32,000 nucleotides of DNA, taken from NCBI RefSeq assembly GCF_001598795.1, contig NZ_BCZP01000015.1:1-32000 (forward strand). Reading direction: 5' to 3'. Below, piece after piece: positions 277 through 27,046 of this stretch. Below the pieces are notes generated by a model. That model searched no databases. It was given only the letters and a program-made list of their open reading frames with translations, and was not told where the DNA came from. The first letter of the stretch is position 1. Each line of letters starts with the position of its first letter. This stretch comes from Delftia acidovorans NBRC 14950 (GTDB lineage Bacteria > Pseudomonadota > Gammaproteobacteria > Burkholderiales > Burkholderiaceae_C). Both the position numbers and the translations under genes were made by a program.

Positions 277-299
277 CCGGGGCATTGCGCCCCGGGTTT
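277..299. terminator. GC hairpin between convergent genes (possible terminator)
   Basis: CCGGGGC (277-283), loop ATTGC, GCCCCGG (289-295), then GTTT. It lies between the stop at 251 (+) and the stop at 307 (-). Confidence 0.4.
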
Positions 300-306
300 C
301 TGCAAA

Positions 307-588
307 TCAATCCAGGTCAGTTAGTTTCTTGAACCTTCCTGATTTATCCCATCCCCGGCCCTTCTCGCAGGAGACCTGTGCATATCCAAGATCCTTTCTT
401 AGGATGATGTCTTCGCTGATGGCACATATTTCTCCTTTTTCCAACACGAAGGCGACAATCAATGGATGATTGTTGTTTTTATAAATATCCACGGTATCCA
501 TTGCCTCCCATTGGCCCGTTGGCTCATAACTGCAGGCGGTCAATGCTATTGCGGAGATGATTCTGGTAGTGTTGGTGATTATTCTCAT
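307..588 (-). CDS. small lipoprotein, paralog A (candidate immunity protein)
   Basis: 93-aa ORF with a GGGAGA RBS upstream. The signal peptide has lipobox L-T-A-C (IALTAC). About 40 of 68 aligned residues are identical to the neighbouring ORF 713-1006 (hand alignment). DNA is low GC. Confidence 0.7.
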   Translation of the reverse strand: MRIITNTTRIISAIALTACSYEPTGQWEAMDTVDIYKNNNHPLIVAFVLEKGEICAISEDIILRKDLGYAQVSCEKGRGWDKSGRFKKLTDLD

Positions 589-712
589 TAAATAATCTCC
601 CTAAGGTTGGTTCTATTGTTTTGACTATTCAATTTCGAACTGACTTCATGCACTTTTGTCTGATTTTTGAGTGACCGCTATATTTTTTTGATGGCTGCCC
701 AGGTATAGCATC

Positions 713-1006
713 CTATTCACTCAATTTCTTGAATTTTCCTGTTATCTCCCATCCACTCCCCTTTGCGCATGAGACCTGTAAATAGCCCAAGTCTTTTCTG
801 ATAACGGGTTTTTTACTTACAGCGCAAATCTCACCTTTTTCTATAACGAATGCAATTTTCAACGGATGGTCATTTGTAGTGTAGACATACAAATCTTCTG
901 TTGCTTCCCATTGCCCTGCCGGCATGTATTCGTCGGGGTTGCTGCATGCGCTCAGTATGGTGGCAATGCAGGCTGTTGCATATGCTGCGAAAGCTCTTGA
1001 TTTCAT
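713..1006 (-). CDS. small lipoprotein, paralog B (candidate immunity protein)
   Basis: 97-aa ORF whose signal peptide has lipobox L-S-A-C (TILSAC). Its start ATG (1006-1004) overlaps the stop TGA (1005-1003) of the upstream gene as ATGA. DNA is low GC. Confidence 0.75.
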   Translation of the reverse strand: MKSRAFAAYATACIATILSACSNPDEYMPAGQWEATEDLYVYTTNDHPLKIAFVIEKGEICAVSKKPVIRKDLGYLQVSCAKGSGWEITGKFKKLSE

Positions 1007-1776
1007 GGATTCTTCTGGTAATTTATTCTTCTCAAAATTCTATTGGATCTTGAGATTATGATCAATAACTCCTTTGGTGAAACCAGGCGGGAAGTAGATG
1101 GCGACATTTGAAACCGCGGGTCGTGTGCCAGAATCCCAACTGACTCCAATACCTCTGCAACATTGGTTGAGCAACTATTTTCGGTAAGGCTGTACGGTTT
1201 TTGAGCAGCAACCCGCTTTTCAAGTTCTGCTTTGATTTTCGTCTTTTCCTCGCGAGACACTCTCAGCACCAAGCCAGTGACATCTCTTTTGACGGTTGCC
1301 AAATTCGATGAAAGATATTGCTCGCGCTCCAGTACAGCATATCTTGTTGGAGCCTGACTGTAGGTCTTTCCATCAATATCGATTGCAGCATGTCCCCACT
1401 GTGATCCCGGCCTGGTGAGAAGTGCGTCGTAAATGAACACCTCGATCGTAGGCTCCTCGATCATCGGCTCCGACCCCATGAATTGCGCCATACGCCGTTC
1501 ATAGCCAAAGATTGCCGGAGGCTGGGCCAGCAGTTCGAACATGCGGGTCGCTGGTGCAATCCGGCCCTGGGTCATGACGGGCGAGCCGGACAGTTGCTGA
1601 AAGGTGGCGATCGAGCGCTCCAGCGCCCGGGACCATCTGCCGTCCTCGCGCAGCAGTTTGCGGCAGGGATCGCGCTGCATATGTCCGTTGAGCAATTGCT
1701 GGACAGTGAACACGTCTTTGGGATGATTCATTGCCGCCCGCCCCACGGGACCGGAAATTCTTGCAGTTGTTGCCAT
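1003..1776 (-). CDS. peptidoglycan-binding-like domain fused to a permuted papain-like (His..Cys) putative hydrolase; candidate cell-wall toxin/effector
   Basis: 257-aa ORF with GGAGGGAG just upstream of the ATG at 1776. Residues ~20-85 resemble a PG_binding_1 repeat (VFTVQQLL...EDGRWSRALERSIATFQ...GRIAPATRMFELL). Residues ~110-215 carry GHAAIDIDGKTY (H129) followed 73 residues later by YSLTENSCSTNVAEVL (C202). That order and spacing recall PPPDE/DeSI and LRAT-type thiol hydrolases. No signal peptide is present. Confidence 0.75.
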   Translation of the reverse strand: MATTARISGPVGRAAMNHPKDVFTVQQLLNGHMQRDPCRKLLREDGRWSRALERSIATFQQLSGSPVMTQGRIAPATRMFELLAQPPAIFGYERRMAQFMGSEPMIEEPTIEVFIYDALLTRPGSQWGHAAIDIDGKTYSQAPTRYAVLEREQYLSSNLATVKRDVTGLVLRVSREEKTKIKAELEKRVAAQKPYSLTENSCSTNVAEVLESVGILAHDPRFQMSPSTSRLVSPKELLIIISRSNRILRRINYQKNP

Positions 1777-1923
1777 GGTCTCCCTCCGGTATGGACGCCG
1801 GCCGGCTGAAGCCGGCTCTCACGTTGGGGAAGATGCTATGCAAGGCCCTGGTGCAATGGACGGTGCGGTCTGCACTTTCGCGCACGAGAATTGACTGTGG
1901 GCGCAATGACGAATGAAAAAACG

Positions 1924-1962
1924 CCATCCGCATCGTTTTGTTGCGGATGGCGTCAGTGATGA
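1924..1962 (-). terminator. rho-independent terminator of the glucarate operon (minus strand)
   Basis: Perfect 12-bp stem ACGCCATCCGCA (1930-1941) / TGCGGATGGCGT (1951-1962) with a 9-nt loop. An A6 run on the + strand gives a U-tract on the minus-strand transcript. It lies 41 nt downstream of the stop at 2003. Confidence 0.75.
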
Positions 1963-2002
1963 AAGCAGTCGCCAGCACCTGGCGGCTGCTTTGGGTCCAG
2001 CC

Positions 2003-3451
2003 TCAGGCCAGCGTATACGCCGTCTTCACCGTCGTATAGAACTCCTGCGCATAGCGGCCCTGTTCGCGCGGGCCGTAGCTGCTGCCTTTGCGGCCGCCGA
2101 AGGGCACGTGGTAGTCCACGCCGGCCGTGGGAAGGTTGACCATGACCATGCCGGCCTGGCTGTGGCGCTTGAAGTGGGTGGCGTGCTTGAGGCTGGTGGT
2201 GGCAATGCCTGCGGCCAGGCCGAAGGGCGTGTCGTTGGCCACGGCCAGGGCTTCCTCGTAGTCCTTCACGCGGATGACGCTGGCCACGGGGCCGAAGACT
2301 TCCTCGCGGTTGATGCGCATGGCGGCCTGGGTGTCCACGAACAGGGTGGGCGCCATGTAGTAGCCCTGGTTGCCGCTGCCGGTGTGGCAGGCGGCGGCTG
2401 CGCCGCCCGCAGCCAGCACGGCACCTTCGGCCTTGGCGATTTCCACGTAGCTCAGGTCCTGCTCCAGCTGGGCCTGGCTGACCACGGGGCCCATGTCGGT
2501 GCCTGCGGCGCGGGCGTCGCCCACCTTGATCCTGGCCATGCGGGCCTGCAGGGCCTCGATGAAGGCGGGGTAGATCCTGTCGGTGACGATGAGGCGGCTC
2601 GATGCCGTGCAGCGCTGGCCCGTGGAGTAGAAGCCGCTTTGCGCGGACAGCTCCACGGCCTGGGTGAGGTCGGCGTCGTCCAGCACGATCTGCGGGTTCT
2701 TGCCGCCCATCTCCAGCTGCACCTTCTTGCCGCTTTCCACGCAGGCGCGGGCAATGCCGCGGCCCACGCCCACGGAGCCGGTGAAGCTGATGGCGGCCAC
2801 GTCGCTGTGGCGCACCAGGGCATCACCGATGACGCGGCCCGGGCCCATGACGAGGTTGAAGACACCGGCCGGAATGCCCGAGCGGTGAATGATGTCGGCC
2901 AGCGCCCAGGCGCTGCCGGGCACGAGGTCAGCAGGCTTCAGGACCACGCAGTTGCCGAAGGCCAGGGCCGGGGCGATCTTCCAGGCGGGAATGGCGATGG
3001 GGAAGTTCCACGGCGTGATCAGGCCCACCACGCCGACGGGCTCGCGCGTGATTTCCACGCCGATGCCGGGGCGCACGGAGGGCAGGGTTTCGCCGGCCAG
3101 GCGCAGGCATTCACCCGCGAAGAACTTGAAGATCTGGCCTGCGCGGCCGACTTCGCCAATGGCTTCGGGGCGGGTCTTGCCTTCCTCGCGCGCCAGCAGG
3201 TCGCCCAGCTCTTCCTTGCGGGCCAGGATTTCGTTGCCTATCTTGTCCAGGGCGTCGTGGCGGGCCTGGATGCCCGAGGTGCTCCAGGCGGGGAAGGCCG
3301 CGGCTGCCGCGGCGATGGCGGCTTCCACATCGGCGGCATTGCCCTGGGCGTACTCGCCGATCACATCGGACAGGTCGCTGGGGTTGGTGTTGGCGCTGTA
3401 GCCGTCGGCGGCCTTCCATTGGCCGTTGATGAGGTTGTCGTAGCGGGACAT
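2003..3451 (-). CDS. NAD(P)-dependent aldehyde dehydrogenase, probable alpha-ketoglutarate semialdehyde (2,5-dioxovalerate) dehydrogenase
   Basis: 482 aa with a clear ALDH-family sequence (FTGS, ELGGKNP-like EMGGKNP, catalytic QRCTA). The specific function is inferred from being the last gene of the gudD/kdgD operon. Confidence 0.88.
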   Translation of the reverse strand: MSRYDNLINGQWKAADGYSANTNPSDLSDVIGEYAQGNAADVEAAIAAAAAAFPAWSTSGIQARHDALDKIGNEILARKEELGDLLAREEGKTRPEAIGEVGRAGQIFKFFAGECLRLAGETLPSVRPGIGVEITREPVGVVGLITPWNFPIAIPAWKIAPALAFGNCVVLKPADLVPGSAWALADIIHRSGIPAGVFNLVMGPGRVIGDALVRHSDVAAISFTGSVGVGRGIARACVESGKKVQLEMGGKNPQIVLDDADLTQAVELSAQSGFYSTGQRCTASSRLIVTDRIYPAFIEALQARMARIKVGDARAAGTDMGPVVSQAQLEQDLSYVEIAKAEGAVLAAGGAAAACHTGSGNQGYYMAPTLFVDTQAAMRINREEVFGPVASVIRVKDYEEALAVANDTPFGLAAGIATTSLKHATHFKRHSQAGMVMVNLPTAGVDYHVPFGGRKGSSYGPREQGRYAQEFYTTVKTAYTLA

Positions 3452-3487
3452 GAGGTGCTCCGGGAAAGGGGTAACGGAAGGAAGGGG

Positions 3488-4825
3488 TCAGCGGACCATG
3501 CAGGGGCGCTTGTTGTCGAAGGTCCAGCCGGGAATCAGGTACTGCATGGCCATGGCGTCATTGCGCGCGCCCAGGCCGTGCTCCAGGTACAGGGCGTTGG
3601 CGCGCTGCAGCGCGGCGCGGTCCACGGTGACGCCCAGGCCCGGGGTCTTGGGCACCTCGACGAAGCCGCCCTTGATCTGCAGCGGGTTCTGGGTGAGGTA
3701 CTGGCCGTCCTGCCAGATCCAGTGCGTGTCGATGGCCGTGACCTTGCCGGGCACGGCGGCGGCCACGTGGGTGAACATGGCCAGCGAGATGTCGAAGTGG
3801 TTGTTGGAGTGCGATCCCCAGGTCAGGCCCCAGTCGCGGCAGGTCTGGCCCACGCGCACGGAGCCGGCCATGGTCCAGAAATGCGGGTCGGCCAGGGGGA
3901 TGTCCACGGACTGCAGCGACAGCGCATGCACCATCTGGCGCCAGTCGGTGGCGATCATGTTGGTGGCCGTGGGCAGGCCGGTGGCGCGGCGGAATTCGGC
4001 CATGACTTCGCGGCCCGAGAAGCCGTTCTCGGCGCCGCAGGGATCTTCGGCATAGGCGAGCACGCCGTGCATGTCGCGCATGAGGCGGATGGCGTCCTTG
4101 AGCAGCCAGCCGCCGTTGGGGTCCAGCGTGACGCGCGCCTGCGGAAAGCGCCTGGCCAGCGCGGTGACGGCCTCCACCTCCTGCTCGCCGGCCAGCACGC
4201 CGCCCTTGAGCTTGAAGTCGTTGAAGCCGTAGCGCGCGTGCGCCGCCTCGGCCTGGCGCACGATGGCGGCCGGGTCCATGGCGGTCATGTGGCGCACCTG
4301 CGTCCAGTCGTCGCTGCCGCTTTGGTCTTCGCCGGGCTGGACGTAGGGCAGGTCGGTCCTGTCGGTGGGGCCGGTGAAGAACAGGTAGCCCAGCATCTCC
4401 ACGCGGTCGCGCTGCTGGCCTTCGCCCAGCAGGGCCGCCACGGGCACGCCCAGGTGCTGGCCCAGCAGGTCCAGCAGCGCCGATTCCACGGCGGTGACGG
4501 CATGCACGGCAATGCGCAGATCGAAGGTCTGCAGGCCGCGCCCGCCCGTGTCGCGGCCGGCCAGGGCCTGCTGCAGGTTCTGCAGCAGCTTCAGGTGGTT
4601 GCCCACGGACTGGCCGATGAGCAGCGCCTTGCTGTCCTCCAGCGCCTGGCGTATGCCTTCGCCGCCAGGCACCTCGCCCACACCGGTGTGGCCCGCGCTG
4701 TCGTGCACGAGCACGATGTTGCGCGTGAAGTAGGGCGCATGCGCGCCGCTGAGGTTCATGAGCATGCCGTCGCGGCCGGCGACGGGAATGACTTCGATCT
4801 CGGTGATGGTCGGGGTGGAGGACAT
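3488..4825 (-). CDS. gudD: D-glucarate dehydratase (enolase superfamily)
   Basis: 445 aa starting [19 protein letters not shown]. GudD-type motifs are present: FKLKGG, DPNGGW, YAEDP, ATNM, HSNNH. The track ORF 3488-5080 carries an implausible 85-codon Arg/Pro-rich N-extension that overlaps the next gene, so the start is set at ATG 4825. Confidence 0.93.
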
Positions 4826-4868
4826 GGCGTGCTCTTGGATCGTTTGGATCGGTCTCTGGGAAAAAAGG

Positions 4869-5855
4869 CTATGCGGCGGCAGTGGCCGCCTGCTGCGCGG
4901 CGGACCACGGCACCTCGGCCTCGGGCCGGCCCGTGGCGATGAACTGCGCCAGGTTGCGCAGCACGAGGTCGGCCATGGCGCGGCGGGTTTCATGCGTGCC
5001 GCTGGCGATGTGGGGCGCAAGCACCACGTTGTCCTGCGACAGCAGCTCGGCATGGGGGCGTGGCTCGTCCTCGAACACATCCAGGCCCGCGCCTGCGATG
5101 CGGCCCTGCTGCAGGGCCTGGACCAGTGCGGCCTCGTCGACCACGCTGCCGCGCGCCACGTTGATCAGAAAGCCCTGCGGGCCCAGCGCGTCCAGCACCT
5201 CGGCGTTGACCAGGTGCTGCGTGCCGTCGCCGCCTGCGGCCGTGATGACGAGGAAGTCGCTCCAGCGTGCGAGTTCGAGCAGCGAGGGCTGGTAGAGGTG
5301 GGGCGATCCCACGACCGGGCGGCGGTTGTGATAGGCCACCTCCATGTCGAAGCCGGCCGCGCGGCGCGCCACGGTGGAGCCGATGCGGCCCATGCCGAAG
5401 ATGCCCAGGCGCTTGCCGCTGGCGCGCGTGCGGATGCCGAAGCGGCCTCGGCTCCAGTCGCCCCGGCGCACGAAGCGGTCGGACTCGCTCAGGCCACGCG
5501 CCGCATCCAGCAGCAGGGCAAAGGCCATGTCGGCCACGCAGTCGTCCAGCACGCCGGGCGTGTAGCCCACGCGGGCGCCCTGGCGCAGCAGGGACTCGCG
5601 GTCCAGCGCGTCAAAGCCCACGCCGAAGCTGCTCACGAAGCGCAGCCTGGGCAGGGCCTGCACCACGCTCGCGGGCACGCCCATGGCGGCCGAGGTGACC
5701 AGGTATTCGAACTGCGCGCCGTGCTCGGCGAGGAAGCGCTCGCGGTCGGGCTGCTCGGACAGCAGCGTCACCTCATAGGCCTGGGCCAGTTCGGCATCGA
5801 GCTGGGGCAGCGGCATCTTGCCGAACTGTAGAACGCGTGGACGGGAGGTCGCCAT
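4869..5855 (-). CDS. D-isomer-specific 2-hydroxyacid dehydrogenase (glyoxylate/hydroxypyruvate-reductase-like)
   Basis: 328 aa from [12 protein letters not shown]. It has the NAD-binding GIFGMGRIG motif and a catalytic-type ending (ARG...D, HIAS). Start chosen at ATG 5855. Confidence 0.88.
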
Positions 5856-6015
5856 GCCTTGGAATCCTTGGAACTTGCAGGGGCTGGAAGCCCCGGTGAA
5901 AAGGGCCTGCGTGGTGGCAGGCCTGCGGAGATGACCAGAGGCCAACCCGGATTTATCTCAGCTATCCCCTGTGCTCAATGTAGAAAAATCTGTTCAAAAC
6001 TGGCGCACTCCAACA

Positions 6016-6114
6016 TCAGGGACGCCGAGCAAGAGCCGCCTCGCGGCGAGGGCGTCGTCCCCCTCCCTTGCGAAGCAAGTAGAGAGGGGGAAGGCGCGAA
6101 GCGACTCAGGGGGT
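6016..6114 (-). repeat. REP-like structured intergenic repeat, copy A
   Basis: The reverse complement aligns over ~95 nt with 12462-12555 and 19840-19937. Shared core: CCCCCTGAG.CGCTTCGCGCCTTCCCCCT...GGGAGGGGGAC.ACGCC.TCGCCGCGAGGCGGCTCTTGCTCGGCGT. It contains internal complementary C5/G5 arms and begins 9 nt after the tctC stop at 6123. Confidence 0.8.
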
Positions 6115-6122
6115 GCCTCATT

Positions 6123-7082
6123 TCAATCAGCGGTGATTTTTCGGGTCTGAATCAGCTGCTTCCAGCGCTCCGATTCCTGGGCCTGGTAGCGCGTGAATTC
6201 CTCGGGCGTGTTGCCCACGATCTCCAGGCCCTGCTCCACGAAGCGCTTGCGGATGTCGGGCTGCTGCACGGAGGCGATGGCGGCCTTGGCCAGCTTGGCC
6301 TTCACATCGGCGGGCAGTCCCTTGGGCGCGGCCAGGCCTTGCCAGGAGTAGACCTCGGCACCCTTGACGCCGGCCTCGGCCAGCGTGGGCACATCGGGCA
6401 GCACGGGCGAGCGCTGGCTGCCGGTCACGGCGATCGCATGCAGCTTGCCGCTGCGCAGATGGGGCAGCACGGCGTTGACGTTCTGGAACGAGAAGTCCAC
6501 CTGGCCACCGATCAGGTCGGTGATGGCCGGGGCGCCGCCCTTGTAGGGCACGTGCATGCCTTCGGTGCCGCTTTGCTGCCAGAACAGCTCGGCCGACAGA
6601 TGGTCCGAGGAGCCGTTGCCCGAACTCGCGAAGCTGATCTTGCCGGGGTTGGCTTTGAGCGCGGCGATGACCTCGGCCACGGTGCGGGCCTTCTGCGCGG
6701 GGCTGGCCACGAGCACGTTGGGCGCCTGCACGGGGATGGTGATGTAGTCGAAGTCCTTGCCTGCGTCATAGGGCACGTTCTTGACCAGGTGCGGCGTGAC
6801 CACGAAGGGGCCCAGCGAGGCCACCAGCAGCGTGTAGCCATCGGCCGGTGCGCGCTTGACGGCGCCCGCGCCGATGGTGCCGGTGGCGCCCGGGCGGTTT
6901 TCCACCACGAAGGGCTTGCCCAGCTGCTCGCCCATGCTCAGGGCCATGGCGCGCGCCACGGTGTCGGTGGAGCCTCCGGCCGGGAAGGGCACGATGATGT
7001 TGACGGCCTTGTCCGGAAAGCTGCCGGCCGCCTGCGCCGTGAGGGCCAGTGCGGCACCCAGCGTGATCAGAATCTTCTTCAT
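6123..7082 (-). CDS. Bug-family (TctC-like) tripartite tricarboxylate transporter periplasmic solute receptor
   Basis: MKKILITLGAALALTAQAAG signal peptide, then the typical Bug core (PFPAGGSTD, ..YKGGAP). AGGAGACAAG RBS upstream. Confidence 0.9.
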   Translation of the reverse strand: MKKILITLGAALALTAQAAGSFPDKAVNIIVPFPAGGSTDTVARAMALSMGEQLGKPFVVENRPGATGTIGAGAVKRAPADGYTLLVASLGPFVVTPHLVKNVPYDAGKDFDYITIPVQAPNVLVASPAQKARTVAEVIAALKANPGKISFASSGNGSSDHLSAELFWQQSGTEGMHVPYKGGAPAITDLIGGQVDFSFQNVNAVLPHLRSGKLHAIAVTGSQRSPVLPDVPTLAEAGVKGAEVYSWQGLAAPKGLPADVKAKLAKAAIASVQQPDIRKRFVEQGLEIVGNTPEEFTRYQAQESERWKQLIQTRKITAD

Positions 7083-7140
7083 GTTCTTGTCTCCTGGGGG
7101 GCGCAAGGGCCGGACTGGCCCCTGCGTCCGGTCTTGTGGC

Positions 7141-8052
7141 TTATTGCGGGCCGAGCTTGTCGATCAGGGCCTTGAGCTCTTCCAGCTCGGAGGGCTTGAG
7201 GTCCGTCAGCGGGGCGCGCACGGGGCCTGCGTCGTGGCCGACCAGCTTGGCGCCGGCCTTGATGATGCTCACGCCGTAGCCTTCGACGCGGTTGCGGATC
7301 TTCAGGTAGGGCATGAAGAATTCCTTGAGCAGCTTGTGCTGCGTGGCCGTGTCGTCGGTGCGCACGGCTTCGTAGAACGCCATCGCCGTCTTGGGGATGA
7401 AGTTGAAGACGGCTGAGGAGTACACCGGCGTGCCCAGGGCCTTGTAGGCGGCCGCATAGACCTCGGCCGTGGGCAGGCCGCCCAGGTAGGCGAAGCGGTC
7501 GCCCATCTTCATGAAGATGGCGGACATGGTCTCGATGTTGCCCATGCCGTCCTTGAAGCCCACCAGGTTGGGGCAGCGCTCGGCCAGGATGGCCAGCGAT
7601 TCGGGCGTGAAGCGGGTGCGGTCGCGGTTGTAGACGATGACGCCGAACTTCACGCTCTTGCAGACCTGCTCCACATGGGCGATCAGGCCTTCCTGGCCGG
7701 CTTCGGTCAGGTAGTGGGGCAGCAGCAGGACGCCGTGGGCGCCCAGGCGCTCCGCTTCCTGGGCATGGGCAATGGCCGTGCGCGTGGGGCCGCCGGCGCC
7801 CGCGATGATGGGCACCTTGCCGCGGCAGGTGTCCACCGCGGTCTTGATGATCTGGCCGTATTCCTCGCCGTACAGCGAGAAGTACTCGCCCGTGCCGCCG
7901 GCCGCGAACAGCGCGCTGGCGCCGTAGGGGGCCAGCCATTCGAGGCGGGCCGCATAGCCCTTGGCATTGAAGTTGCCGTTGCTGTCGAAGTCCGTCACGG
8001 GGAAGGACAGCAGGCCGGAACTCATCACGTCTTTGAGGTCTTGGGGGGTCAT
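7141..8052 (-). CDS. kdgD: 5-dehydro-4-deoxy-D-glucarate dehydratase/decarboxylase (DapA/NAL superfamily)
   Basis: 303 aa, [23 protein letters not shown]...[11 protein letters not shown]. This is the KdgD-type class I aldolase fold, found in glucarate context. Confidence 0.92.
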
Positions 8053-8098
8053 GGTGCTCTCGGGAATAAGGGTGGGGAAGAAAGAAAAAGGGGTGGAA

Positions 8099-9076
8099 TC
8101 AGTCGAGCTTCAAACCGGCTGTTTGAACCACTTTTTGCCAGCGCTGGCGCTCGGTGGTCAGGAAGCGCGCGGTCTCGGCAGGGTTCATGGTCACGACCTC
8201 GGCGCCCTGGCCCGTGAGGCGGGCGCGCACCTCGGGCGAGCGGATGGCGGTGATCAGGGCCTCATGCAGGCGTTGGACCACGGCCTCGGGCGTCTTGGCC
8301 GGAACGACCACGCCTTGCCAGGTGCCGGTCTCGAAGCCGGGCACGCCCTGCTCGGCGATGGTGGGCACGTTGGCGGCCAGCGGCATGCGTGTGCCCTTGG
8401 ACAGGCCCAGCAGCTTGAGCTTGCCGCTTTGCACATGGGGGTAGGTGGCCAGCATGCCGTTCATCAGCACCTGGGTCTGGCCTGCCACCGTGTCCTGGAT
8501 GGACTGCACGCCGCCCTTGTAGGGCACGTATTCCCAGCGGGCGCCCGTGGCGCGCGCCAGTTCCACGCCGGCCAGGTGCGGGGCGCTGCCCGTGGCGGTG
8601 ACGGCAAAGCTCAGGTCTTCCTTCTTGGACAGGGCCACCAGCTCCTGCAGGTTGTTGGCCGGCACCGAGGGGTGGACCACCAGCAGATGGGGCGAGTAGG
8701 CCAGCATGGCCGTGCCGCGCAGGTCCCGGGACAGGTCGAAGGACAGCTTGGTGTAGAGCGAGGGCGAGATGGCCAGCGCACCCAGGTCGCACAGCATCAG
8801 CGTGTGGCCGTCGGGCTGGGCCTTGGCCACCATGTCGGCGCCCAGGTTGCCGTTGGCGCCGGGCTTGTTCTCGATGACCACGGGCTGCTTGAGTTCTGCC
8901 GACAGCAGCGGGCCGATGGCGCGCGCAATGATGTCCGAGCTGCCACCGGGCGGGTAGGGCACCACCAGGCGCAGCGGGCGCGTGGGCCAGTTGCTCTGGG
9001 CCAGCGCACCGGCGCCGGTGGCCACGAGGGCGGTGGCGCCAGCGGCGCGCAGGAACTGCTTTCGGCTCAGGGTCAT
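8099..9076 (-). CDS. Bug-family (TctC-like) periplasmic solute receptor
   Basis: 325 aa with a Tat-like leader ([23 protein letters not shown]) and Bug core [28 protein letters not shown] upstream. Confidence 0.9.
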
Positions 9077-9102
9077 GCTCTTGTCTCCAGGTTTTATGTT
9101 GT

Positions 9103-9119
9103 CAGTTGTCGTACAACTG
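9103..9119. promoter_or_regulatory. 17-bp palindrome CAGTTGTCGTACAACTG, candidate GntR/FadR-family operator upstream of the tctC-kdgD operon
   Basis: Perfect dyad with the GntR-family GT-N3-AC core (TTGT-CGT-ACAA). It lies 27 nt upstream of the tctC start at 9076. The same core recurs at 10025-10037. Confidence 0.5.
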
Positions 9120-9224
9120 AAGTCGATTTTTAACCGAGATCTGCAAGCAGTGATAAAGGGTTTTCCCTTGGTTGTCTGAATTCCCGTGGCAAAGCCATTG
9201 GCCCCGAAAGGCCCATGGGAGCAC

Positions 9225-10013
9225 TCAGGTGGCGCTGGTCTTTTGCGCCAGGCGCAGGCGCTCGCGGCTGTTGGTCAGGTGGATGCGCATGGCCGCGCGG
9301 GCCGAGTCGGCGTCCTGGCGCTCGATGGCGGCGAGGATTTCCTCATGCTCGCGGTTGACGCGGCGCAGGTAGTCGGGGTCGCGCTGGGGCTGGTGGATGG
9401 AGGCGATGCGCGTGCGTGGAATCAGCTGCGCGCCGAAGTGGCGCAGGATGTCGCCGAAGTAGCGGTTGCCCGTGGCCTCGGCGATCTGGGTGTGGAAGGC
9501 CAGGTCATGGGCCACCGTGTCCTCGCCGCGCGCAAAGGCGATCTCGAAGGCCTGCAGCGCCATGCGTATGCCCTGCAGCTGCTCGGGGCTGCGGCGCAGC
9601 GCGGCCAGGCCGGCGCTTTCGGTCTCCAGGCTGATGCGCAGCTCCAGCACGGCCATCACGTCCACGGCGGCCGTCAGCTCGTCGGCATTGAGCATCAGCG
9701 TGGATGCGGGCTGGGCGGCGCGCACGAAGGTGCCTATGCCGTGGCGCGTCTCCACCAGGCCCGAGGCCTGCAGGCGCGACAGCGCCTCGCGCACCACGGT
9801 GCGGCTGACTTCGTAGGTCTGCACCAGCGACGACTCCGTGGGCAGCTTCTCGCCTTCGGCCAGCAGGCCGTTGCGGATCTTGCTCGCGAACTCGTCGAAC
9901 AGCAGGGCGGCCAGATTGCGGCCGCTGCGACCGGACTTTCCTCGCAGGGGAAGCTCGATCGTTGGGGGTGATGCGGGAAATCCCTTTGCCGAACTTTCCA
10001 TGGTGCTGATCAT
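9225..10013 (-). CDS. GntR/FadR-family transcriptional regulator (wHTH plus FCD domain)
   Basis: 262 aa with KLPTESSLVQTYEVSRTVVREALSRLQASGLVETRHGIGTFV and a helical FCD-type C-domain. GGAG lies 5 nt upstream of the ATG at 10013. Confidence 0.9.
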   Translation of the reverse strand: MISTMESSAKGFPASPPTIELPLRGKSGRSGRNLAALLFDEFASKIRNGLLAEGEKLPTESSLVQTYEVSRTVVREALSRLQASGLVETRHGIGTFVRAAQPASTLMLNADELTAAVDVMAVLELRISLETESAGLAALRRSPEQLQGIRMALQAFEIAFARGEDTVAHDLAFHTQIAEATGNRYFGDILRHFGAQLIPRTRIASIHQPQRDPDYLRRVNREHEEILAAIERQDADSARAAMRIHLTNSRERLRLAQKTSAT

Positions 10014-10024
10014 AATCGCTCCAA

Positions 10025-10037
10025 GTTGTACGACAAC
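10025..10037. promoter_or_regulatory. 13-bp palindrome GTTGTACGACAAC, second copy of the candidate GntR operator
   Basis: Located in the 82-bp divergent region between gntR (start 10013) and the gudD paralog (start 10096). Its reverse complement shares GTTGTCGTACAACT with the site at 9103-9119. Confidence 0.5.
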
Positions 10038-10095
10038 GTATCACAAGACGTCCGCGCCATCGAGTTTTTCTGATCCTCCTGAACCCGCATTCCAG

Positions 10096-11412
10096 ATGAG
10101 CACCACCCACGCGACCCACGCGATCCGCCACATACGCATCACGCCCATTGCCTTCCGCGATCCGCCGCTGCTCAATGCGGCCGGCATCCACGAACCCTGG
10201 GCGCTGCGTTCCATCATCGAGATCGAGACGGCCTCGGGCCTGGTCGGCATCAACGAAAGCTATGGCGACCAGCCCATGCTCGATGCGCTGGCCAAGGCCG
10301 CGCCCGCTCTGGTGGGGCTGTCGCCCTGGGCGCTCAACGAGATGGAGGTCCGCGTCGCGGCCCTGGTGGCGCCGCCTGCGCTGACGGCGTCCGAATTCCT
10401 GGGCCAGCAGGTGTCGCTGGCGCCGGGCACGCATGTGTCCAAGACGGTGGCCAAGGTGGTCAGCGCCTTCGAGGTCGCCATGCTGGACCTGCAGGGCCAG
10501 ATGGCGGGTGCCCCCATCGTGGACCTGCTGGGCGCCGCCGCGCGCGACAGCGTGCCGTTCTCGGCCTACCTGTTCTACAAGTACGCCGAGCACATCGACA
10601 GGCCCTATGGACCAGATTCTTCGCCCGACGCCTGGGGCGAGGCCCTGGCGCCGCAGCAGCTGGTGGAGCAGGCGCGGCGCATGATTGCGCAGTACGGTTT
10701 CCAGAGCATCAAGCTCAAGGCCGGCGCGCTGCCGCCCGAGCAGGAGGCGGCCGGCATCCTGGCGCTGGCCGATGCCTTTCCGGGCACGCCGCTGCGTATC
10801 GATCCCAATGGCAACTGGACGGTGGAGACCAGCCTGAAGATCGTGCAGCAGCTGCAGGGCGTGCTCGAGTACTACGAGGACCCGGCGCCCGGCCTGGACG
10901 GCATGGCCGCCGTGGCACGCGAGTGCGATGTGCCGCTGGCCACCAACATGGTGGTGACGGACTTTGCCGAGTTCCGCCGCAACGCCGACATGGGCTGCCC
11001 CGTGAAGATCGTGCTCAGCGACCACCACTACTGGGGCGGGCTGCGCGCCACGCAGCGCCTGTCCACGCTGTGCCGCACCTTCGACCTGGGCCTGTCCATG
11101 CACAGCAACTCGCACCTGGGCGTGAGCCTGGTGGCCATGACGCACCTGTGCGCCAGCGTGCCCCTGCTGACCTATGCCTGCGACACGCACTACCCCTGGC
11201 AGGACGAGGAAGTCGTCGAGGGCGGCCGGCTGCAGTTCGAGCAGGGCAGCCTGCGCGTGCCCACGGCGCCCGGCCTGGGTGTGCGGCTGGACCGCGAGGC
11301 CCTGGCACGCCTGCATGACAACTACCTGCACTGCGGCATTCGCAACCGCGACGACCTGGGGCAGATGCGCAAGTACGACCCCGCGTTCACCGGCCACCAG
11401 CCGCGCTTCTGA
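10096..11412 (+). CDS. enolase-superfamily acid-sugar dehydratase, divergent member of the glucarate dehydratase subgroup (GudX/GlucD-related)
   Basis: 438 aa from MSTTHATHAIRHIRITPIAF. It shares the GudD catalytic landmarks (IKLKAG, DPNGNW, YYEDP, ATNM, HSNSH) but by eye is only distantly similar to the gudD at 3488-4825. The start has no obvious RBS and is uncertain. Confidence 0.85.
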   Translation: MSTTHATHAIRHIRITPIAFRDPPLLNAAGIHEPWALRSIIEIETASGLVGINESYGDQPMLDALAKAAPALVGLSPWALNEMEVRVAALVAPPALTASEFLGQQVSLAPGTHVSKTVAKVVSAFEVAMLDLQGQMAGAPIVDLLGAAARDSVPFSAYLFYKYAEHIDRPYGPDSSPDAWGEALAPQQLVEQARRMIAQYGFQSIKLKAGALPPEQEAAGILALADAFPGTPLRIDPNGNWTVETSLKIVQQLQGVLEYYEDPAPGLDGMAAVARECDVPLATNMVVTDFAEFRRNADMGCPVKIVLSDHHYWGGLRATQRLSTLCRTFDLGLSMHSNSHLGVSLVAMTHLCASVPLLTYACDTHYPWQDEEVVEGGRLQFEQGSLRVPTAPGLGVRLDREALARLHDNYLHCGIRNRDDLGQMRKYDPAFTGHQPRF

Positions 11413-11462
11413 ACCCGCTTTCACACCATTCCAACGACAAGCCCTTCCCGGAGACAAGCACC

Positions 11463-12461
11463 ATGCAACGCCGCACACTCATCCAACATTCCCTCGCCAG
11501 CGCCCTGCTGCTGGGCACGGCCCTGACCGCCATGCCCGCCGCCGCGCAGGGCAACTGGCCCACGGGCAAGCCCATCACCTACCTGGTGCCGTTCCCGCCT
11601 GGCGGCAATACCGATACGCTGGCGCGCGTGATCGCCCAGCCGCTGAGTAAGGCCCTGGGCACGCCCGTGGTGATCGAGAACAAGGGCGGCGCGGGCGGCA
11701 GCGTGGGCTCGGCCATTGCGGCGCGCGCACCGGCCGATGGCTACACCATCCTGGGCGGCACCATCAGCTCGCACGCCATCAATGTGAGCCTGTACGCCAA
11801 GCTGGACTACGACCCGGTCAAGTCCTTCACGCCGGTCGCCATGCTGGGCTCGGGCCCGCTGGTGCTGGTGGTGCCGGCCTCCAGCCCCTACAAGACGCTG
11901 GCCGACGTGCTGGCCGCCAGCAAGGCCAAGGCGGCGGCGGGCGGCCTGACCTCGGCTTCGCCGGGCAGCGGCACCTCCAACCACATGGCGCTGGAGCTGC
12001 TGGGCTACCAGACGGGCGTGAAGTTCACCCACGTGCCCTACAAGGGCAGCGGCCCGGCCGTGCAGGACGTGATCGGCGGCCAGGTGGACATGATGTTCGA
12101 CACCGCCCTGGTCGTCGGCCCCCATGTGCAGGCCGGCAAGCTGCGCCCCATTGCCGTGACCAGCTCGCGGCGCCTGGAGTCCCTGCCCGATGTGCCCACC
12201 ATCGCCGAGGCGGGCGAGAAGGGCTTCGACATGGGCTCCTGGCAGGCCGTGTTCGCGCCCGCAGGCACGCCGGGGCCCATCGTGGAGCGGCTGCATGCGG
12301 AGATCATGAAGATCGTCGCCACGCCCGAGGTGCAGGCGCGCCTGAAGAACTTCGGCATGCTGCCTTCGCAGATGACGCCGGCCGAGCTGGGCGAGTTCCA
12401 GAAGGCCGAAGTGGTCAAGTGGGGGAAGGTGATCAAGGCTGCTGGAATAAAGGTGGAATGA
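11463..12461 (+). CDS. Bug-family (TctC-like) periplasmic solute receptor
   Basis: 332 aa with signal peptide ...ALTAMPAAAQ and core PFPPGGNTD, YKGSGP. GGAGACAAGCACC RBS upstream. Confidence 0.9.
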   Translation: MQRRTLIQHSLASALLLGTALTAMPAAAQGNWPTGKPITYLVPFPPGGNTDTLARVIAQPLSKALGTPVVIENKGGAGGSVGSAIAARAPADGYTILGGTISSHAINVSLYAKLDYDPVKSFTPVAMLGSGPLVLVVPASSPYKTLADVLAASKAKAAAGGLTSASPGSGTSNHMALELLGYQTGVKFTHVPYKGSGPAVQDVIGGQVDMMFDTALVVGPHVQAGKLRPIAVTSSRRLESLPDVPTIAEAGEKGFDMGSWQAVFAPAGTPGPIVERLHAEIMKIVATPEVQARLKNFGMLPSQMTPAELGEFQKAEVVKWGKVIKAAGIKVE

Positions 12462-12555
12462 CCCCCTGAGGCGCTTCGCGCCTTCCCCCTTCTCGCTTCG
12501 CGGAGGGGGACAACGCCTTCGCCGCGAGGCGGCTCTTGCTCGGCGTTCCTGAGTG
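12462..12555 (+). repeat. REP-like structured intergenic repeat, copy B
   Basis: Starts immediately after the tctC stop at 12461. It aligns with copies A (reverse complement) and C. Confidence 0.8.
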
Positions 12556-12621
12556 GGGACGTGACGGTTGCGAGGGCTGCACTCCGATTGCGACAGGCCC
12601 CTAGAAAATTGAGACATTGCC

Positions 12622-14187
12622 ATGAGTACCCCACTTCCTCTTTCCATCCGCATGCATCCGGCCGACAACGTGGCCATCGTGGCCAATGACGGGGGGTTGC
12701 CTGCGGGCACGGTGATGCCCGGGGGCCTGGTGCTGGTCGACAAGGTGCCGCAGGCGCACAAGGTGGCGCTGGTGGACATTGCCGAGGGCGGCGAGGTGCG
12801 CCGCTACAACGTGGTGATCGGCTATGCGTTGCAGGCCATTGCCGCGGGCAGCTGGGTGCATGAGCGGCTGCTGCGCATGCCGGGGGCGCTGTCTCTTGAG
12901 GGGTTGCCCATCGCCACGGTGCAGCCGCCCGAGCTGCCGCCGCTGACGGGCTACACCTTCGAGGGCTACCGCAATGCCGATGGCACGGTGGGCACGCGCA
13001 ACATCCTGGCCATCACCACAACGGTGCAGTGCGTGGCCGGGGTGCTGGATTTCGCGGTGGGCCGCATCAAGGCCGAGCTGCTGCCGCGCTATCCGAATGT
13101 GGACGATGTGGTGGGCCTGGAGCACAGCTATGGCTGCGGCGTGGCCATCGATGCCGTGGGCGCCGAGATTCCGCAGCGCACGCTGCGCAACATCAGCCAC
13201 AACCCGAATTTTGGCGGCGAGGTGATGGTGGTGAGCCTGGGCTGCGAGAAGCTGCAGCCCGAGCGGCTGCTGCCGCCGGGGTCCTTCCCCATCGTCGATG
13301 AGCGCGAGCCCGCGCTGGACGTGGTCTGCCTGCAGGACGAGGCGCATGTGGGCTTCATGTCCATGGTGGACTCCATCATGGGCAGCGCCAGGGTGCATCT
13401 GGAGCGGCTGAACGCGCGCCGGCGCGAGACCGTGCCGGCCAGCGCCCTGGTGGTGGGCGTGCAGTGCGGCGGCAGCGATGCGTTCAGCGGCGTCACGGCC
13501 AATCCGGCCGTGGGCTTTTGCACCGATTTGCTGGTGCGCGCAGGCGCCACCGTGATGTTCAGCGAGGTGACCGAGGTGCGCGACGGCATCGACCAGCTCA
13601 CCTCGCGCGCCTCCAGCCCCGAGGTGGCCCAGGCCATGATCGAGGAGATGGCCTGGTACGACGCCTACCTGGACAAGGGCCGCGTGGACCGCAGCGCCAA
13701 CACCACGCCGGGCAACAAGAAGGGCGGCCTGTCCAACATCGTCGAGAAGGCCATGGGCTCCATCATCAAGAGCGGCACGGCGCCCATCACCGGCGTGCTG
13801 TCGCCGGGCCAGCGGCTGGCCGACCGGGGCATCCAAAGCGGCCTGGTCTATGCGGCCACGCCGGCCAGCGACTTCATCTGCGGCACGCTGCAGCTGGCCG
13901 CCGGCATGAACCTGCATGTGTTCACCACGGGCCGGGGTACGCCCTACGGCCTGGCCCAGGTGCCCGTGATCAAGGTGGCCACGCGCAGCGACCTGGCGCG
14001 GCGCTGGCATGACCTGATGGACGTGAACGCGGGCCGCATCGCCGAAGGCCAGGCCAGCATCGAGGACGTGGGCTGGGAGATGTTCCGCCTGATGCTGGAC
14101 GTGGCCAGCGGCCGCAAGAAGACCTGGGCGGAGCAGTGGAAGCTGCACAACGCCCTGGTGCTGTTCAATCCAGCGCCCGTGACCTGA
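12622..14187 (+). CDS. garD: galactarate dehydratase (UxaA/GarD family: SAF domain plus GD_AH C-domain)
   Basis: 521 aa with N-terminal SAF-like HPADNVAIV...VPQAHKVAL and a conserved C-domain ([20 protein letters not shown]). Confidence 0.92.
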
Positions 14188-14248
14188 GCCGCGCGCACAG
14201 GCCCCTGTCGGCACAGGCTGACAGGGCGCTGGTGCGCCGCTGAGCACA

Positions 14249-15368: not shown

Positions 15369-16307
15369 ATGGACCGATTGCAGACCATGCGGGTGTTTCA
15401 GACCGTGGCCGACGAGGCCGGGTTTTCGGCGGCGGCGCGTCGCCTGGACATGTCCGTGCCCACGGTCACGCGCCTGGTGGCCGACCTGGAGCAGCACCTG
15501 GGCACGCGGCTGCTGCAGCGCACCACGCGCAGCGTGTCGCTGACCGAGGCCGGCGAGGCCTATCTGGAGCGCGTGCGCGGCATCCTGGCCGATGTGGAGG
15601 ATGCCTTCAGCCTGGCGCAGGCGCACACGCTGGAGCTGTCGGGCGCCGTGCGCGTGCTCACGCCGCCCGTGTTTGCCGAGCATGTGCTGGCGCCGCTGGT
15701 GGCGGACTTCCACCGCCTGCACCCGCGCATCTGCATCGAGGTCTTCGTGGAGTCGGCCAGCGAGGCCGCCGTGGGCGAGTACGACATCACCTTCCTCAAC
15801 GCCGAGGAGGGCTATGACGGCAACGTGGTGGCGCGGCCCATCGTCACCACCTGCGGCCTGGCCTGCGCCTCGCCCGAGTACCTGGATGCCCATGGCGTGC
15901 CCGCCGTGCCCGAGGATCTGGCGGACCACCAGTGCCTGCTGCGCCGCCGCGCCCAGGGCCGCTCCGACGTGCTGCGCCTGCGCCGGCTCGATGGCAATGC
16001 GGGCGAGGCCGAGGTGGCCGTACAGCCCGTGCTGGTGGCCAACCACACCGGCACGCTGCTGCGTGCCACGCTGGACGGCGCGGGCATCAGCACCCAGCCG
16101 CTGGACCTGATCGCGCGCCACCTGCGTTCGGGCCGCCTGCGCCATGTGCTGCCCGAGTGGACCACGGGCCATTTCACGCTCTACGCCACCTTGCCCACGC
16201 GCAAGTTCATGCCGGCGCGCGTGCGCAGCTTCCTGGACTTCGTGGCCGAGCACACGCAGCGCTCCATGCAGGGCCTGCCCGCCAACTTGCCGGCCCTGTC
16301 CATCTGA
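15369..16307 (+). CDS. LysR-family transcriptional regulator
   Basis: 312 aa from MDRLQTMRVFQTVADEAGFSAAARRLDMSVPTVTRLVADLEQHLGTRLLQRTTR. Start chosen at ATG 15369. Confidence 0.9.
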   Translation: MDRLQTMRVFQTVADEAGFSAAARRLDMSVPTVTRLVADLEQHLGTRLLQRTTRSVSLTEAGEAYLERVRGILADVEDAFSLAQAHTLELSGAVRVLTPPVFAEHVLAPLVADFHRLHPRICIEVFVESASEAAVGEYDITFLNAEEGYDGNVVARPIVTTCGLACASPEYLDAHGVPAVPEDLADHQCLLRRRAQGRSDVLRLRRLDGNAGEAEVAVQPVLVANHTGTLLRATLDGAGISTQPLDLIARHLRSGRLRHVLPEWTTGHFTLYATLPTRKFMPARVRSFLDFVAEHTQRSMQGLPANLPALSI

Positions 16308-16543
16308 GCGCGGCTGTCATCTAGGTTACTGGCGGGGGCCTGAGGGTCTCGGGGTTTCCCAGGTGAATTCCGCTGTGCGGAATCTTCGGGTTGATCGTGG
16401 CGCCACCCCCCTCCTAAGCTGGCCTTGCCTGTCTGCCGCATGCGTTGTCGCGCCGCGCCGGCCGGCCATGCAAAGGAGACAAGACAATGCAAGCACAGAC
16501 CCTGGCCGGGCGCCGAGCCGCGCCTTTCCGCAGGAGGCGTTGA

Positions 16544-17407
16544 ATGGACGTTTTTCTGCAGCAAGTGCTCAACGGCCTGACCCTGGGCGGCATCTACGGC
16601 CTGGTGGCCCTGGGCCTGACCCTGGTCTACGGCATCCTGCACGTGCCCAATTTCGCGCACGGCGGCTTCTACATGATCGGCGCCTTCGTGGCCTTCCAGG
16701 CCATGGTGGCCTGGAGCTGGGGCTACTGGGCGGCCATGCTGACCGCAGCCGTCGCGGTGGCGGTGCTGGGCATCGTCAGCGAGCGGCTGATCTTCCATCC
16801 GCTGCGCAAGGCCTCGCCCCTGCATCCCAAGATCGCCTCCATCGGGCTGCTGCTGTTCCTGGAGGCGGGTGCCCAGGCGCTGTGGGGCGCGGACTTCCAG
16901 CGCATGCCCACGCCCTACACCTCCATCGTGGAGATGGGCGGCATCACGGCGCCCGCGCAGCGCCTGCTGATCATCGGTGCGGCCTTTGCGCTGATGGTGG
17001 CCCTGCACCTGTTCCTGACGCGCACCATCACGGGCGCGACCATCATCGCCATGGCGCAGAACCGAGAGGGCGCATCGATGGTGGGCATCGACGCCAACCG
17101 CGTGTCCATGCTGACCTTTGCCATCTCGGGCGTGCTCGCGGCCGTGGCGGCCACGCTGTATGCGCCCATCAACCTGGTCTATCCGGCCATGGGCCACCTG
17201 GTCATCACCAAGGCTTTCGTGATCATCATCCTGGGCGGCATGGGCAGCATCCCGGGCGCCGTGCTGGGCGGACTGATCATCGGCTTTGCCGAGAGCTTCG
17301 GCGCCTACTACATCTCCACCGACTACAAGGACATCATCGCCTTCGTGCTGCTGGTGGTGATCCTGTCGCTGCGCCCGCAGGGCCTGTTCGCCAAGAGGAG
17401 TCATTGA
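16544..17407 (+). CDS. livH: branched-chain amino acid-type ABC transporter permease
   Basis: 287 aa from MDVFLQQVLNGLTLGGIYGLVALGLTLVYG, the LivH signature N-terminus. AGGAGG RBS upstream. Confidence 0.92.
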   Translation: MDVFLQQVLNGLTLGGIYGLVALGLTLVYGILHVPNFAHGGFYMIGAFVAFQAMVAWSWGYWAAMLTAAVAVAVLGIVSERLIFHPLRKASPLHPKIASIGLLLFLEAGAQALWGADFQRMPTPYTSIVEMGGITAPAQRLLIIGAAFALMVALHLFLTRTITGATIIAMAQNREGASMVGIDANRVSMLTFAISGVLAAVAATLYAPINLVYPAMGHLVITKAFVIIILGGMGSIPGAVLGGLIIGFAESFGAYYISTDYKDIIAFVLLVVILSLRPQGLFAKRSH

Positions 17408-24130: not shown

Positions 24131-24174
24131 GCGCCGATTATCGGCAGCCGCCCCGCCACGGGGTGTCGTGGGCT

Positions 24175-27029: not shown

Positions 27030-27046
27030 AGGCGCCGGGAGGGCCG

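Follow-up and report, generated by a model that had tools for sequence, protein, structure and literature searches.

The stretch of DNA analysed here (the window, 32,000 nucleotides) is the beginning of contig NZ_BCZP01000015.1 of Delftia acidovorans NBRC 14950, and it contains, according to the ORF listing, three consecutive minus-strand open reading frames (ORFs) between positions 307 and 1776, designated g1, g2 and g3. The first encodes an enzyme domain of the permuted Cys-His type behind a peptidoglycan-binding module, and the other two encode small lipoproteins. The three genes very probably constitute an antibacterial toxin-immunity cassette. Taken as a whole, the reading that we favour, with a probability of roughly 0.75, is that of a horizontally acquired cassette in which g1 would be a lipid-acting toxin delivered by a type VI secretion system (T6SS), with immunity conferred by the lipoproteins. 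A preliminary description of this locus, made from the sequence alone, had already proposed a toxin-immunity module formed by a toxin made without a Sec signal and periplasm-facing lipoprotein immunity proteins, and the comparison with homologs supports that proposal.

Domain architecture and fold of g1

Homologs of g1 were collected in a first search, which retrieved 50 sequences, and by screening 1.84 billion representative proteins with a profile, which retrieved 406. Across 42 aligned homologs, His129 and Cys202, which lie 73 residues apart, are each conserved in at least 90% of the sequences, and in a divergent set of 41 sequences the catalytic Cys is invariant and the His is again conserved in at least 90%. 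Near-invariant in the family of 42 are also E112, D117, the motif that leads to the His (GSQWGH(129)), D135, the motif around the Cys (NSCSTN, C202) and LAHDPR(218-221). The AlphaFold model of g1 built on the homolog alignment has a predicted local distance difference test score (pLDDT) of 84.8, exceeding 90 across most of the catalytic domain, and places Cys202 at the beginning of a helix (202-212) and His129 within a strand (127-134). As modelled, the catalytic domain is a circularly permuted, His-first papain-like arrangement of the NlpC/P60 superfamily. In a Foldseek comparison of the model with the PDB the top match is E. coli YiiX (2if6; probability 0.99, E 7.6e-3, TM-score 0.46 on the target), and the PPPDE deSUMOylase 2wp7 appears only at rank 44 with a probability of 0.18; a sequence search of solved structures gave no meaningful match. 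Acyl-enzyme catalysis by Cys202 and His129 would be the probable chemistry of such a domain.

At the level of sequence profiles, the nearest Pfam family is Lnb_N/DUF4105 (PF13387), which is matched by 39 of the 42 aligned homologs (E <= 1, best E 1e-8) and whose gathering cut-off of 22.2 bits is surpassed by P0073 (26.0 bits) and P0062 (27.9 bits). None of the 42 matches Peptidase_C97/PPPDE (PF05903), LRAT, NLPC_P60 or Peptidase_C92 at E <= 1, and the canonical CHAP profile is likewise matched by none. The preliminary description had recognised in H129 and C202 a permuted papain-like fold distinct from the Cys-first Tae enzymes, which is borne out by conservation, model and Foldseek; its assignment to PPPDE or LRAT enzymes holds for the superfamily but not for the families, since their profiles are matched by 0 of 42 members and the nearest relatives are Lnb_N and YiiX.

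Residues 1-96 of g1 are a PG_binding_1 domain, as had been proposed from the residue pattern, although the assignment holds at the level of the family. The match of g1 itself to PF01471 is weak (E 0.24). Among the approximately 21 homologs that carry the N-domain, 17 match PG_binding_1 with a best E of 5.8e-6, and the N-domain profile retrieves bona fide PG_binding_1 proteins, with values of up to 1e-41 on PF01471. Foldseek in turn pairs the N-domain of the model with the PG_binding_1 modules of CtpB (4c2c, probability 0.99), the Zn DD-peptidase 1lbu and SleC (9h68). A direct reading of the N-terminus reveals no hydrophobic signal sequence, in agreement with the earlier reading of the gene, and g1 has no transmembrane (TM) segment.

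Pairing of the toxin domain with lipoproteins

The g2 and g3 proteins are paralogs (57% identity, E 1e-36), and both carry a lipobox of the bacterial form [LVI][ASTVI][GAS]C (ILSAC with Cys21 in g2, ALTAC with Cys19 in g3), a motif kept in most homologs. The start codon of g2 shares the sequence ATGA with the TGA stop codon of g1, which couples translation of g2 to that of g1. A hidden Markov model (HMM) built from g2, g3 and their relatives detects a homolog directly 3′ of the toxin gene in loci of the PG_binding type (L001, L003-5, L012-14, L016) and in loci of the PAAR type (L007, L018, L020, L028), as well as 3′ of a toxin domain at the C-terminal end of an Rhs protein (L042, E 6e-18). In the relatives of g1 the next gene usually codes for a lipoprotein of the g2 type. 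Toxin and lipoprotein thus stay together in all three delivery formats, which is the strongest bioinformatic sign that the two form a cognate pair. On these grounds g2 is predicted to be the cognate immunity protein of g1, to which it would bind. The paralog g3, whose counterpart in L001 lies behind an orphan C-terminal fragment of the toxin, is predicted to be an additional, orphan immunity protein.

The partner of the toxin is not of one kind throughout the family. Longer, TM-anchored versions that retain the GDxC...CxxGxGW motifs occur in other branches (L015, L017, L019, L032, L033), and toxins with an insertion of about 20 residues are followed by multi-TM proteins of about 95-100 amino acids (aa) instead of lipoproteins (L021:10507-10818, L027:10513-10794). 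A multi-TM protein also lies 3′ of an Aeromonas homolog taken from the published Tox-Act1 list (L040:3889-4191). The type of immunity thus changes within the toxin family. The g2/g3 family itself has no Pfam model and is rare in databases, with 6 matches.

Association of the family with PAAR and Rhs proteins

The C-terminal domain of g1 is found in several weapon-related architectures. It is fused to PAAR in four homologs (P0056, P0068, P0074, P0075), and in another it constitutes the C-terminal tip of an Rhs protein, beginning right behind the core-end motif DPSGE (P0078, L042). This Rhs locus is broken by insertion sequence elements (IstB_IS21, Mu-transposase C and Y1_Tnp), and another piece of an Rhs gene downstream hints at an array of orphan tips (L042:4979-5527 and 11483-12865). 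In 19 of 28 reference-genome loci, all 28 of them from Betaproteobacteria, the toxin has a PAAR gene or the remnant of one immediately upstream, and all 19 are of the toxin-only type. An intact upstream PAAR gene was confirmed by Pfam in four loci, of which L020, L021 and L030 belong to the 28 and L007 does not. In the metagenomic loci L007 and L008 the PAAR gene stops 2 bp ahead of a 181-aa toxin-only homolog, which is followed by two small overlapping genes. The PG_binding_1 module of g1 seems to stand in for a short segment at the N-terminus that goes with the partnership with PAAR.

Two further contexts were observed. In a metagenomic protein of 319 aa (P0038) the toxin domain is preceded, at the N-terminus, by DUF6402 (PF19940, E 4e-21), a functionally uncharacterised domain without literature hits that may be a further delivery or adaptor domain. 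In Acidovorax sp. 99 (L003:9245-9997), and also in L004 and L005, a gene for a Peptidase_M48 protein of 250 aa (E 1e-25) stops 3 bp short of P0027, a toxin homolog of the PG_binding type, a distance that suggests co-transcription; neither the window nor the remaining loci of the PG_binding type have a counterpart of this peptidase gene.

Relationship to Tox-Act1 and to other known systems

The preliminary description regarded the module as undescribed and could place g1 in no named toxin family, a view that goes too far with regard to the type of toxin, as the domain can probably be placed with the permuted NlpC/P60 T6SS toxins of the Tox-Act1/DUF4105 group (PMC12994826). Tox-Act1 is an effector of the T6SS encoded in Salmonella pathogenicity island 6 (SPI-6) (Nicastro et al., PLoS Biol 2026, PMC12994826; bioRxiv 2024.09.27.615498). 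Its permuted NlpC/P60 core was linked by HHpred to DUF4105 and to TseH, another T6SS effector of the permuted group treated in the same work, and it forms a sister clade of DUF4105/Lnb. It has been established that Tox-Act1 is toxic only in the periplasm, where it requires H43 and C151, and that it cleaves phosphatidylglycerol and phosphatidylethanolamine, the cells lysing with their sacculus intact, while its immunity protein, Imm-Act1, consists of two TM helices (PMC12994826). The clade is broad and includes fusions to Rhs, PAAR, haemagglutinin and LysM domains as well as small proteins that stand alone, and two of its entries bear the label Peptidase_C97 in list S3A of that paper (PMC12994826).

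The g1 protein and its family share with Tox-Act1 the permuted NlpC/P60 toxin domain with His before Cys, the GH and N(x)CST motifs and the relation to DUF4105/Lnb_N. Also common to both are the fusion or adjacency to PAAR and Rhs proteins within the family, an immunity gene immediately downstream that often overlaps the toxin gene, the lack of a signal peptide and the predicted periplasmic action. On the other hand, the spacing between His and Cys is 73 residues in g1 and 108 in Tox-Act1 (H43/C151), g1 carries an N-terminal PG_binding_1 domain, and the immunity protein is a lipoprotein of about 95 aa with a predicted all-beta domain in the g1 family but a two-TM protein for Tox-Act1, so that g2 and g3, as lipoproteins with a predicted beta-rich soluble domain, depart from the Imm-Act1 type. 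The association with secretion systems that characterises Tox-Act1 is found in the family of g1 (the PAAR fusions, the Rhs tip and the 19 of 28 loci described above) but not at the locus of g1 itself. The direct sequence comparison was made with one homolog of the S3A list, WP_182959113.1 of Aeromonas (plasmid NZ_AP022111.1), whose His motif reads GTGHAFVSI (WGHAAIDI in g1) and whose Cys motif reads YDLTGNNCSTT (YSLTENSCSTN in g1); its gene is followed by an overlapping multi-TM ORF.

None of the genera that carry the g1 subfamily appears in the homolog tables of the Tox-Act1 study (S3, PMC12994826), and neither the PG_binding_1 fusion nor the lipoprotein immunity family nor the betaproteobacterial subfamily is contained in them. 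Conversely, when proteins from the Massilia, Duganella, Aquabacterium or Enterobacterales entries of those tables were sought within the subfamily with a profile, none turned up, although this search is word-indexed and incomplete, having missed known Cupriavidus and Chromobacterium members. In our reading, and by analogy, the catalytic domain of g1 would work like Tox-Act1 and would be grouped with it among the permuted NlpC/P60 toxins beside DUF4105, where g1 would represent a distinct and unlisted subfamily with a different type of immunity and a new N-terminal fusion.

The other systems to which g1 can be compared are more distant in function. Lnb, the Bacteroides lipoprotein N-acyltransferase (DUF4105, PF13387), is the nearest profile to the g1 family, and both have the N-C-[ST] motif and a conserved His. 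Lnb, however, is a housekeeping membrane enzyme that combines a periplasmic domain with a membrane domain and is found in a lipid-metabolism context (PMC12994826), whereas g1 is soluble, without membrane domain or signal peptide, and its family occurs in the contexts of conflict systems, which sets it apart from the Lnb functional family. NCBI names close relatives of g1 "DUF4105 / Lnb domain-containing", and the public label "lipoprotein N-acyltransferase Lnb domain-containing" is probably misleading for these toxins. YiiX/YaeF (Peptidase_C92) and LRAT/HRASLS enzymes have the same circularly permuted papain-like fold as g1, but the g1 family has no C92 or LRAT match in Pfam, and the YiiX and LRAT enzymes are not toxins. 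The PPPDE/DeSI proteins (Peptidase_C97) also have a papain-like arrangement with His before Cys, but support from profiles and Foldseek is lacking. Tae/Tai pairs are comparable to g1-g2 in that they consist of small T6SS cargo acting in the periplasm and adjacent genes for periplasmic or lipoprotein immunity proteins. Tae enzymes, however, have the canonical Cys-first topology and cleave peptidoglycan, whereas g1 has the permuted order and falls among lipid-acting enzymes.

Module exchange and toxin loss

Polymorphic toxin systems are characterised by a constant N-terminus, a variable C-terminal toxin, a downstream immunity gene and orphan arrays (PMC3482391), and these traits recur in the family of g1. 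The homolog P0042 (L041) has the same type of N-domain as g1 followed by an unrelated C-domain and by a different, membrane-anchored ORF downstream. Homology between the DNA of g1 and that of the L041 gene stops exactly at codon 96 (window 1489), where the guanine-plus-cytosine (GC) content drops from 61% to 47%. The gene order in L001 is toxin, lipoprotein gene, an orphan 87-aa fragment of the toxin C-terminus and a second lipoprotein gene. This is a classic array of displaced toxin tips and immunity genes, and such an array explains how two immunity paralogs may come to lie in a row. The family thus combines a constant N-domain with alternative C-domains that have their own downstream genes and with orphan tip and immunity modules, and the cassette evolves by exchanging, at codon 96, the block made up of C-terminal toxin domain and immunity gene. 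What distinguishes g1 from the described polymorphic toxins is that it is very short and lacks any recognised trafficking domain, be it Rhs, filamentous, PAAR or another. The presence of PGB1 and LysM domains within toxin polypeptides was noted earlier (Zhang et al. 2012, PMC3482391).

The fate of the cassette can be followed within Delftia. The site that it occupies, 3′ of a gene for a 482-aa aldehyde dehydrogenase, is present in Delftia CP065748.1 (L009) with flanks 96-97% identical by blastn. In that genome codons 43-257 of g1 are precisely missing, and the reading frame runs from codon 42 straight into codon 4 of a g2 allele that has diverged (82% identical). The resulting fusion protein (P0050, L009:6001-6477), in which 42 residues of g1 precede the lipoprotein signal peptide and the start codon of g2 has been lost, has 56 member sequences across Delftia, and Delftia sp. 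BR1 carries a second truncated variant of 97 aa (P0137). The intact toxin (P0001, 99% identical) was seen only in read-level assemblies. That a toxin is lost from a variable hotspot while its immunity gene is retained agrees with what toxin-immunity systems are expected to show. Pseudogenised or fragmentary copies are likewise found in other genomes (L013, L034, L035, L037, L038, L039).

In L009 the g2-g3 spacer and g3 are also replaced, by 936 bp with unrelated ORFs. At the site that corresponds to window 310-708 (L009:6487-7211) there is an ORF of 183 aa followed by an overlapping TM ORF of 67 aa, in which two hydrophobic helices are predicted. Both ORFs are without a Pfam match, and this hotspot may thus hold a second toxin-immunity pair.

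Organisation of the locus and its surroundings

The features of the locus are collected in Table 1. The three-gene minus-strand unit, its coordinates, the ATGA overlap and both lipoboxes were reproduced as first described, and so was the low-GC islet: GC content is 45% in g3, 36% in the spacer, 43.5% in g2, 47% in the C-domain of g1 and 61% in its N-domain, against 68-69% in the flanks and 67% in the whole window. With regard to the two flanking terminators that had been proposed, the hairpin at 1952-1916(-) is strong and terminates the aldehyde dehydrogenase gene upstream, marking the upstream edge of the islet transcription unit, but the one at 295-277(-) is weak; a consensus terminator scan called neither hairpin.

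Table 1. Features of the g1-g2-g3 locus (window positions)
Feature	Position	Strand	Description
g1	1003-1776	(-)	257-aa predicted toxin: constant N-terminal module and exchangeable C-terminal toxin domain
g1 codons 1-96	1489..1776	(-)	Divergent PG_binding_1 domain, constant module, GC 61%
g1 codons 97-257	1006..1488	(-)	Permuted NlpC/P60 (DUF4105/Tox-Act1-like) Cys-His predicted toxin domain, GC 47%
His129 codon, GSQWGH motif	1390..1392	(-)	Predicted catalytic base
Cys202 codon, NSCSTN motif	1171..1173	(-)	Predicted nucleophile
g2	713-1006	(-)	97-aa lipoprotein, lipobox LSAC (Cys21); predicted cognate immunity protein
g3	307-588	(-)	93-aa lipoprotein, lipobox LTAC (Cys19); predicted additional (orphan) immunity protein
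g2-g3 spacer	589..712	(-)	124 bp, 36% GC
Segment deleted in sequenced Delftia genomes	999..1651	(-)	g1 codons 43-257; blastn against L009
Intrinsic terminator	1916..1952	(-)	11-13 bp stem and U6, -24 kcal/mol, z -7.1
Weak terminator candidate 3′ of the g3 stop	277..295	(-)	GC-rich 7-bp hairpin, -18.5 kcal/mol, z -1.9, no U-tract

An orphan 3′ fragment of a toxin gene, as present in L001, was also sought in the g2-g3 spacer of the window and was discarded: the toxin HMM gave no match there, and blastn yielded only scattered matches of 8-11 nucleotides to the 3′ end of g1. The anti-phage defence models of PADLOC gave no match for g1, g2 or g3. Pfam assigned the remaining ORFs of the window to metabolism and regulators only, with no secretion-system genes, and no tRNA genes were found. 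Specifically, the regions 2003-14200 and 23300-29100 encode the aldehyde dehydrogenase, an MR_MLE enolase-type dehydratase and galactarate/altronate dehydratases (sugar-acid catabolism), together with a BrkB-family protein, an ABC permease, IclR and LysR regulators, and PepSY_TM and DUF3325 proteins. Long ORFs without Pfam matches that lie opposite real genes, e.g., 1913-4942 (+) and 16181-19021 (-), are artefacts of the GC content of about 68%; one such ORF, of 1009 aa, is antisense to the aldehyde dehydrogenase and dehydratase genes.

Proposed mechanism and alternative explanations

The mechanism that we propose would begin with g1 in the cytoplasm, from which, without a signal peptide, it would be exported by a contact-dependent apparatus, most likely the T6SS that Delftia carries. 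In the periplasm of the target cell the PG_binding_1 domain would anchor the toxin at the cell wall, and the C-domain, with Cys202 as nucleophile and His129, would probably form an acyl-enzyme and cleave or transfer fatty-acyl chains of envelope lipids. The damage would be of the phospholipase A type, as with Tox-Act1, or possibly directed at lipoprotein acyl chains, as in the chemistry of Lnb, and would end in lysis. The lipoprotein g2, held on a membrane and facing the periplasm, would neutralise incoming g1 by binding it, and g3, as a diverged paralog, would probably protect against a related toxin variant of competitors.

The separate steps are not equally firm. An envelope lipid, either a phospholipid or a lipoprotein acyl chain, is the substrate that we somewhat prefer, because the nearest characterised relatives are lipid-acting and because the immunity proteins of sister branches are embedded in the membrane; peptidoglycan appears a good deal less likely. 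Delivery of g1 itself by T6SS may be given slightly better than even odds, by analogy, because of the links between the family and PAAR and Rhs proteins and because a T6SS was present in 15 of 15 D. tsuruhatensis genomes analysed (PMC9045143). Several observations weigh against this overall picture. No PAAR, VgrG or Rhs neighbour was found at any of the PG_binding_1-type loci examined, to which g1 belongs, and the window holds no T6SS gene by PAAR HMM and Pfam, as had been noticed before for delivery apparatus in general, although the homologs do show PAAR/Rhs fusions and PAAR neighbours; T6SS delivery of g1 is therefore argued from paralogous architectures only. The match of g1 itself to Lnb_N (PF13387; E 2.4e-4, 21.2 bits) falls under the gathering cut-off of 22.2 bits. 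The similarity to the Tox-Act1 group is at the level of motifs, as WP_182959113.1 scores 9.4 bits on the C-domain HMM through the His and Cys motifs only, and hhalign of the g1 C-domain with this protein gives a probability of 16% and aligns only the Cys helix. The structure model of g2, predicted as all-beta, is unreliable (pLDDT 48). Finally, the relatives of the N-domain are mostly fused to peptidoglycan hydrolases (M23, SLT, VanY, CHAP and muramidase), which would suit a peptidoglycan substrate.

This last point leads to the main alternative, in which the toxin-immunity module is the same but the catalytic domain would act on peptidoglycan, as an amidase or peptidase that PG_binding_1 positions on its substrate, and which would bring g1 close to the Tae/Tai-like, peptidoglycan-targeting effector of the preliminary description. 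The NlpC/P60 superfamily includes many cell-wall amidases, and TseH was reportedly first described as a cell-wall hydrolase. Besides the partners of the N-domain, lipoprotein immunity is compatible with peptidoglycan-targeting effectors that act in the periplasm. Nevertheless, the closest profile is that of a lipoprotein N-acyltransferase domain (Lnb_N), the canonical NLPC_P60 and CHAP profiles are matched by 0 of 42 members, and the multi-TM immunity proteins of the sister branches L021 and L027 point to an action at the membrane. Moreover, the characterised permuted members (Tox-Act1, YiiX-like, LRAT/HRASLS and Lnb) act on lipid acyl bonds, and Tox-Act1 spares the sacculus (PMC12994826). We consider this peptidoglycan alternative unlikely, and the weaker of the two readings of the substrate. 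A bolder variant of the lipid-acting toxin, which we hold to be quite improbable, would see in g1 a weaponised Lnb-like enzyme that docks on peptidoglycan and attacks the lipid anchors of envelope lipoproteins of the target, e.g., the tether between outer membrane and peptidoglycan, with the lipoproteins of the cassette as decoy substrates or active-site plugs and, maybe, a PAAR-less loading route not yet described.

Explanations in which g1 is not a toxin have little to recommend them. Modular endolysins with an N-terminal PG_binding_1 domain, a C-terminal enzyme and no signal peptide occur in some Gram-negative phages, and the low-GC mobile islet would suit an endolysin- or autolysin-like enzyme with the lipoproteins as spanin-like or regulatory partners. 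Such an origin is nevertheless very unlikely, given that none of the three proteins has a significant PHROG match, that no phage genes were found in about 40 homologous loci examined and that the catalytic domain sits on PAAR and Rhs proteins. The prophage lysis cassette that the preliminary description had named as a possible refutation is accordingly not seen, and the deletion of the toxin in Delftia with retention of the lipoprotein fits immunity and not lysis. Even less credible is a housekeeping or accessory acyltransferase that would act, like Lnb, on envelope lipids or on the cell's own lipoproteins, g2 and g3 included. The nearest Pfam family, the names given by NCBI and the neighbouring lipoprotein genes all speak for it, but without signal peptide or TM segment g1 could not reach the periplasmic face unaided, and the membrane domain of Lnb is absent. 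The patchy distribution of the family in low-GC islets at differing chromosomal sites, its deletion or pseudogenisation in many genomes and its PAAR/Rhs fusions elsewhere are equally at odds with such a role.

Implications for the toxin family

The toxin-immunity cassette described here would extend the class of lipid-targeting permuted NlpC/P60 T6SS toxins to Betaproteobacteria, with members in Delftia, Acidovorax, Achromobacter, relatives of Burkholderia, Cupriavidus and Chromobacterium. The g2 and g3 proteins define a new, small family of predicted lipoprotein immunity proteins. The subfamily is compact and experimentally tractable, and it comes in three delivery formats, namely the Rhs tip, the PAAR-adjacent cargo and the PG_binding_1 fusion. 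The last of these, being PAAR-less, raises the questions of how the toxin is loaded and of how binding to the wall affects its substrate or potency. Finally, Delftia offers a natural experiment, as most sequenced members keep only the immunity remnant at the hotspot and the strain of the window has the intact toxin.

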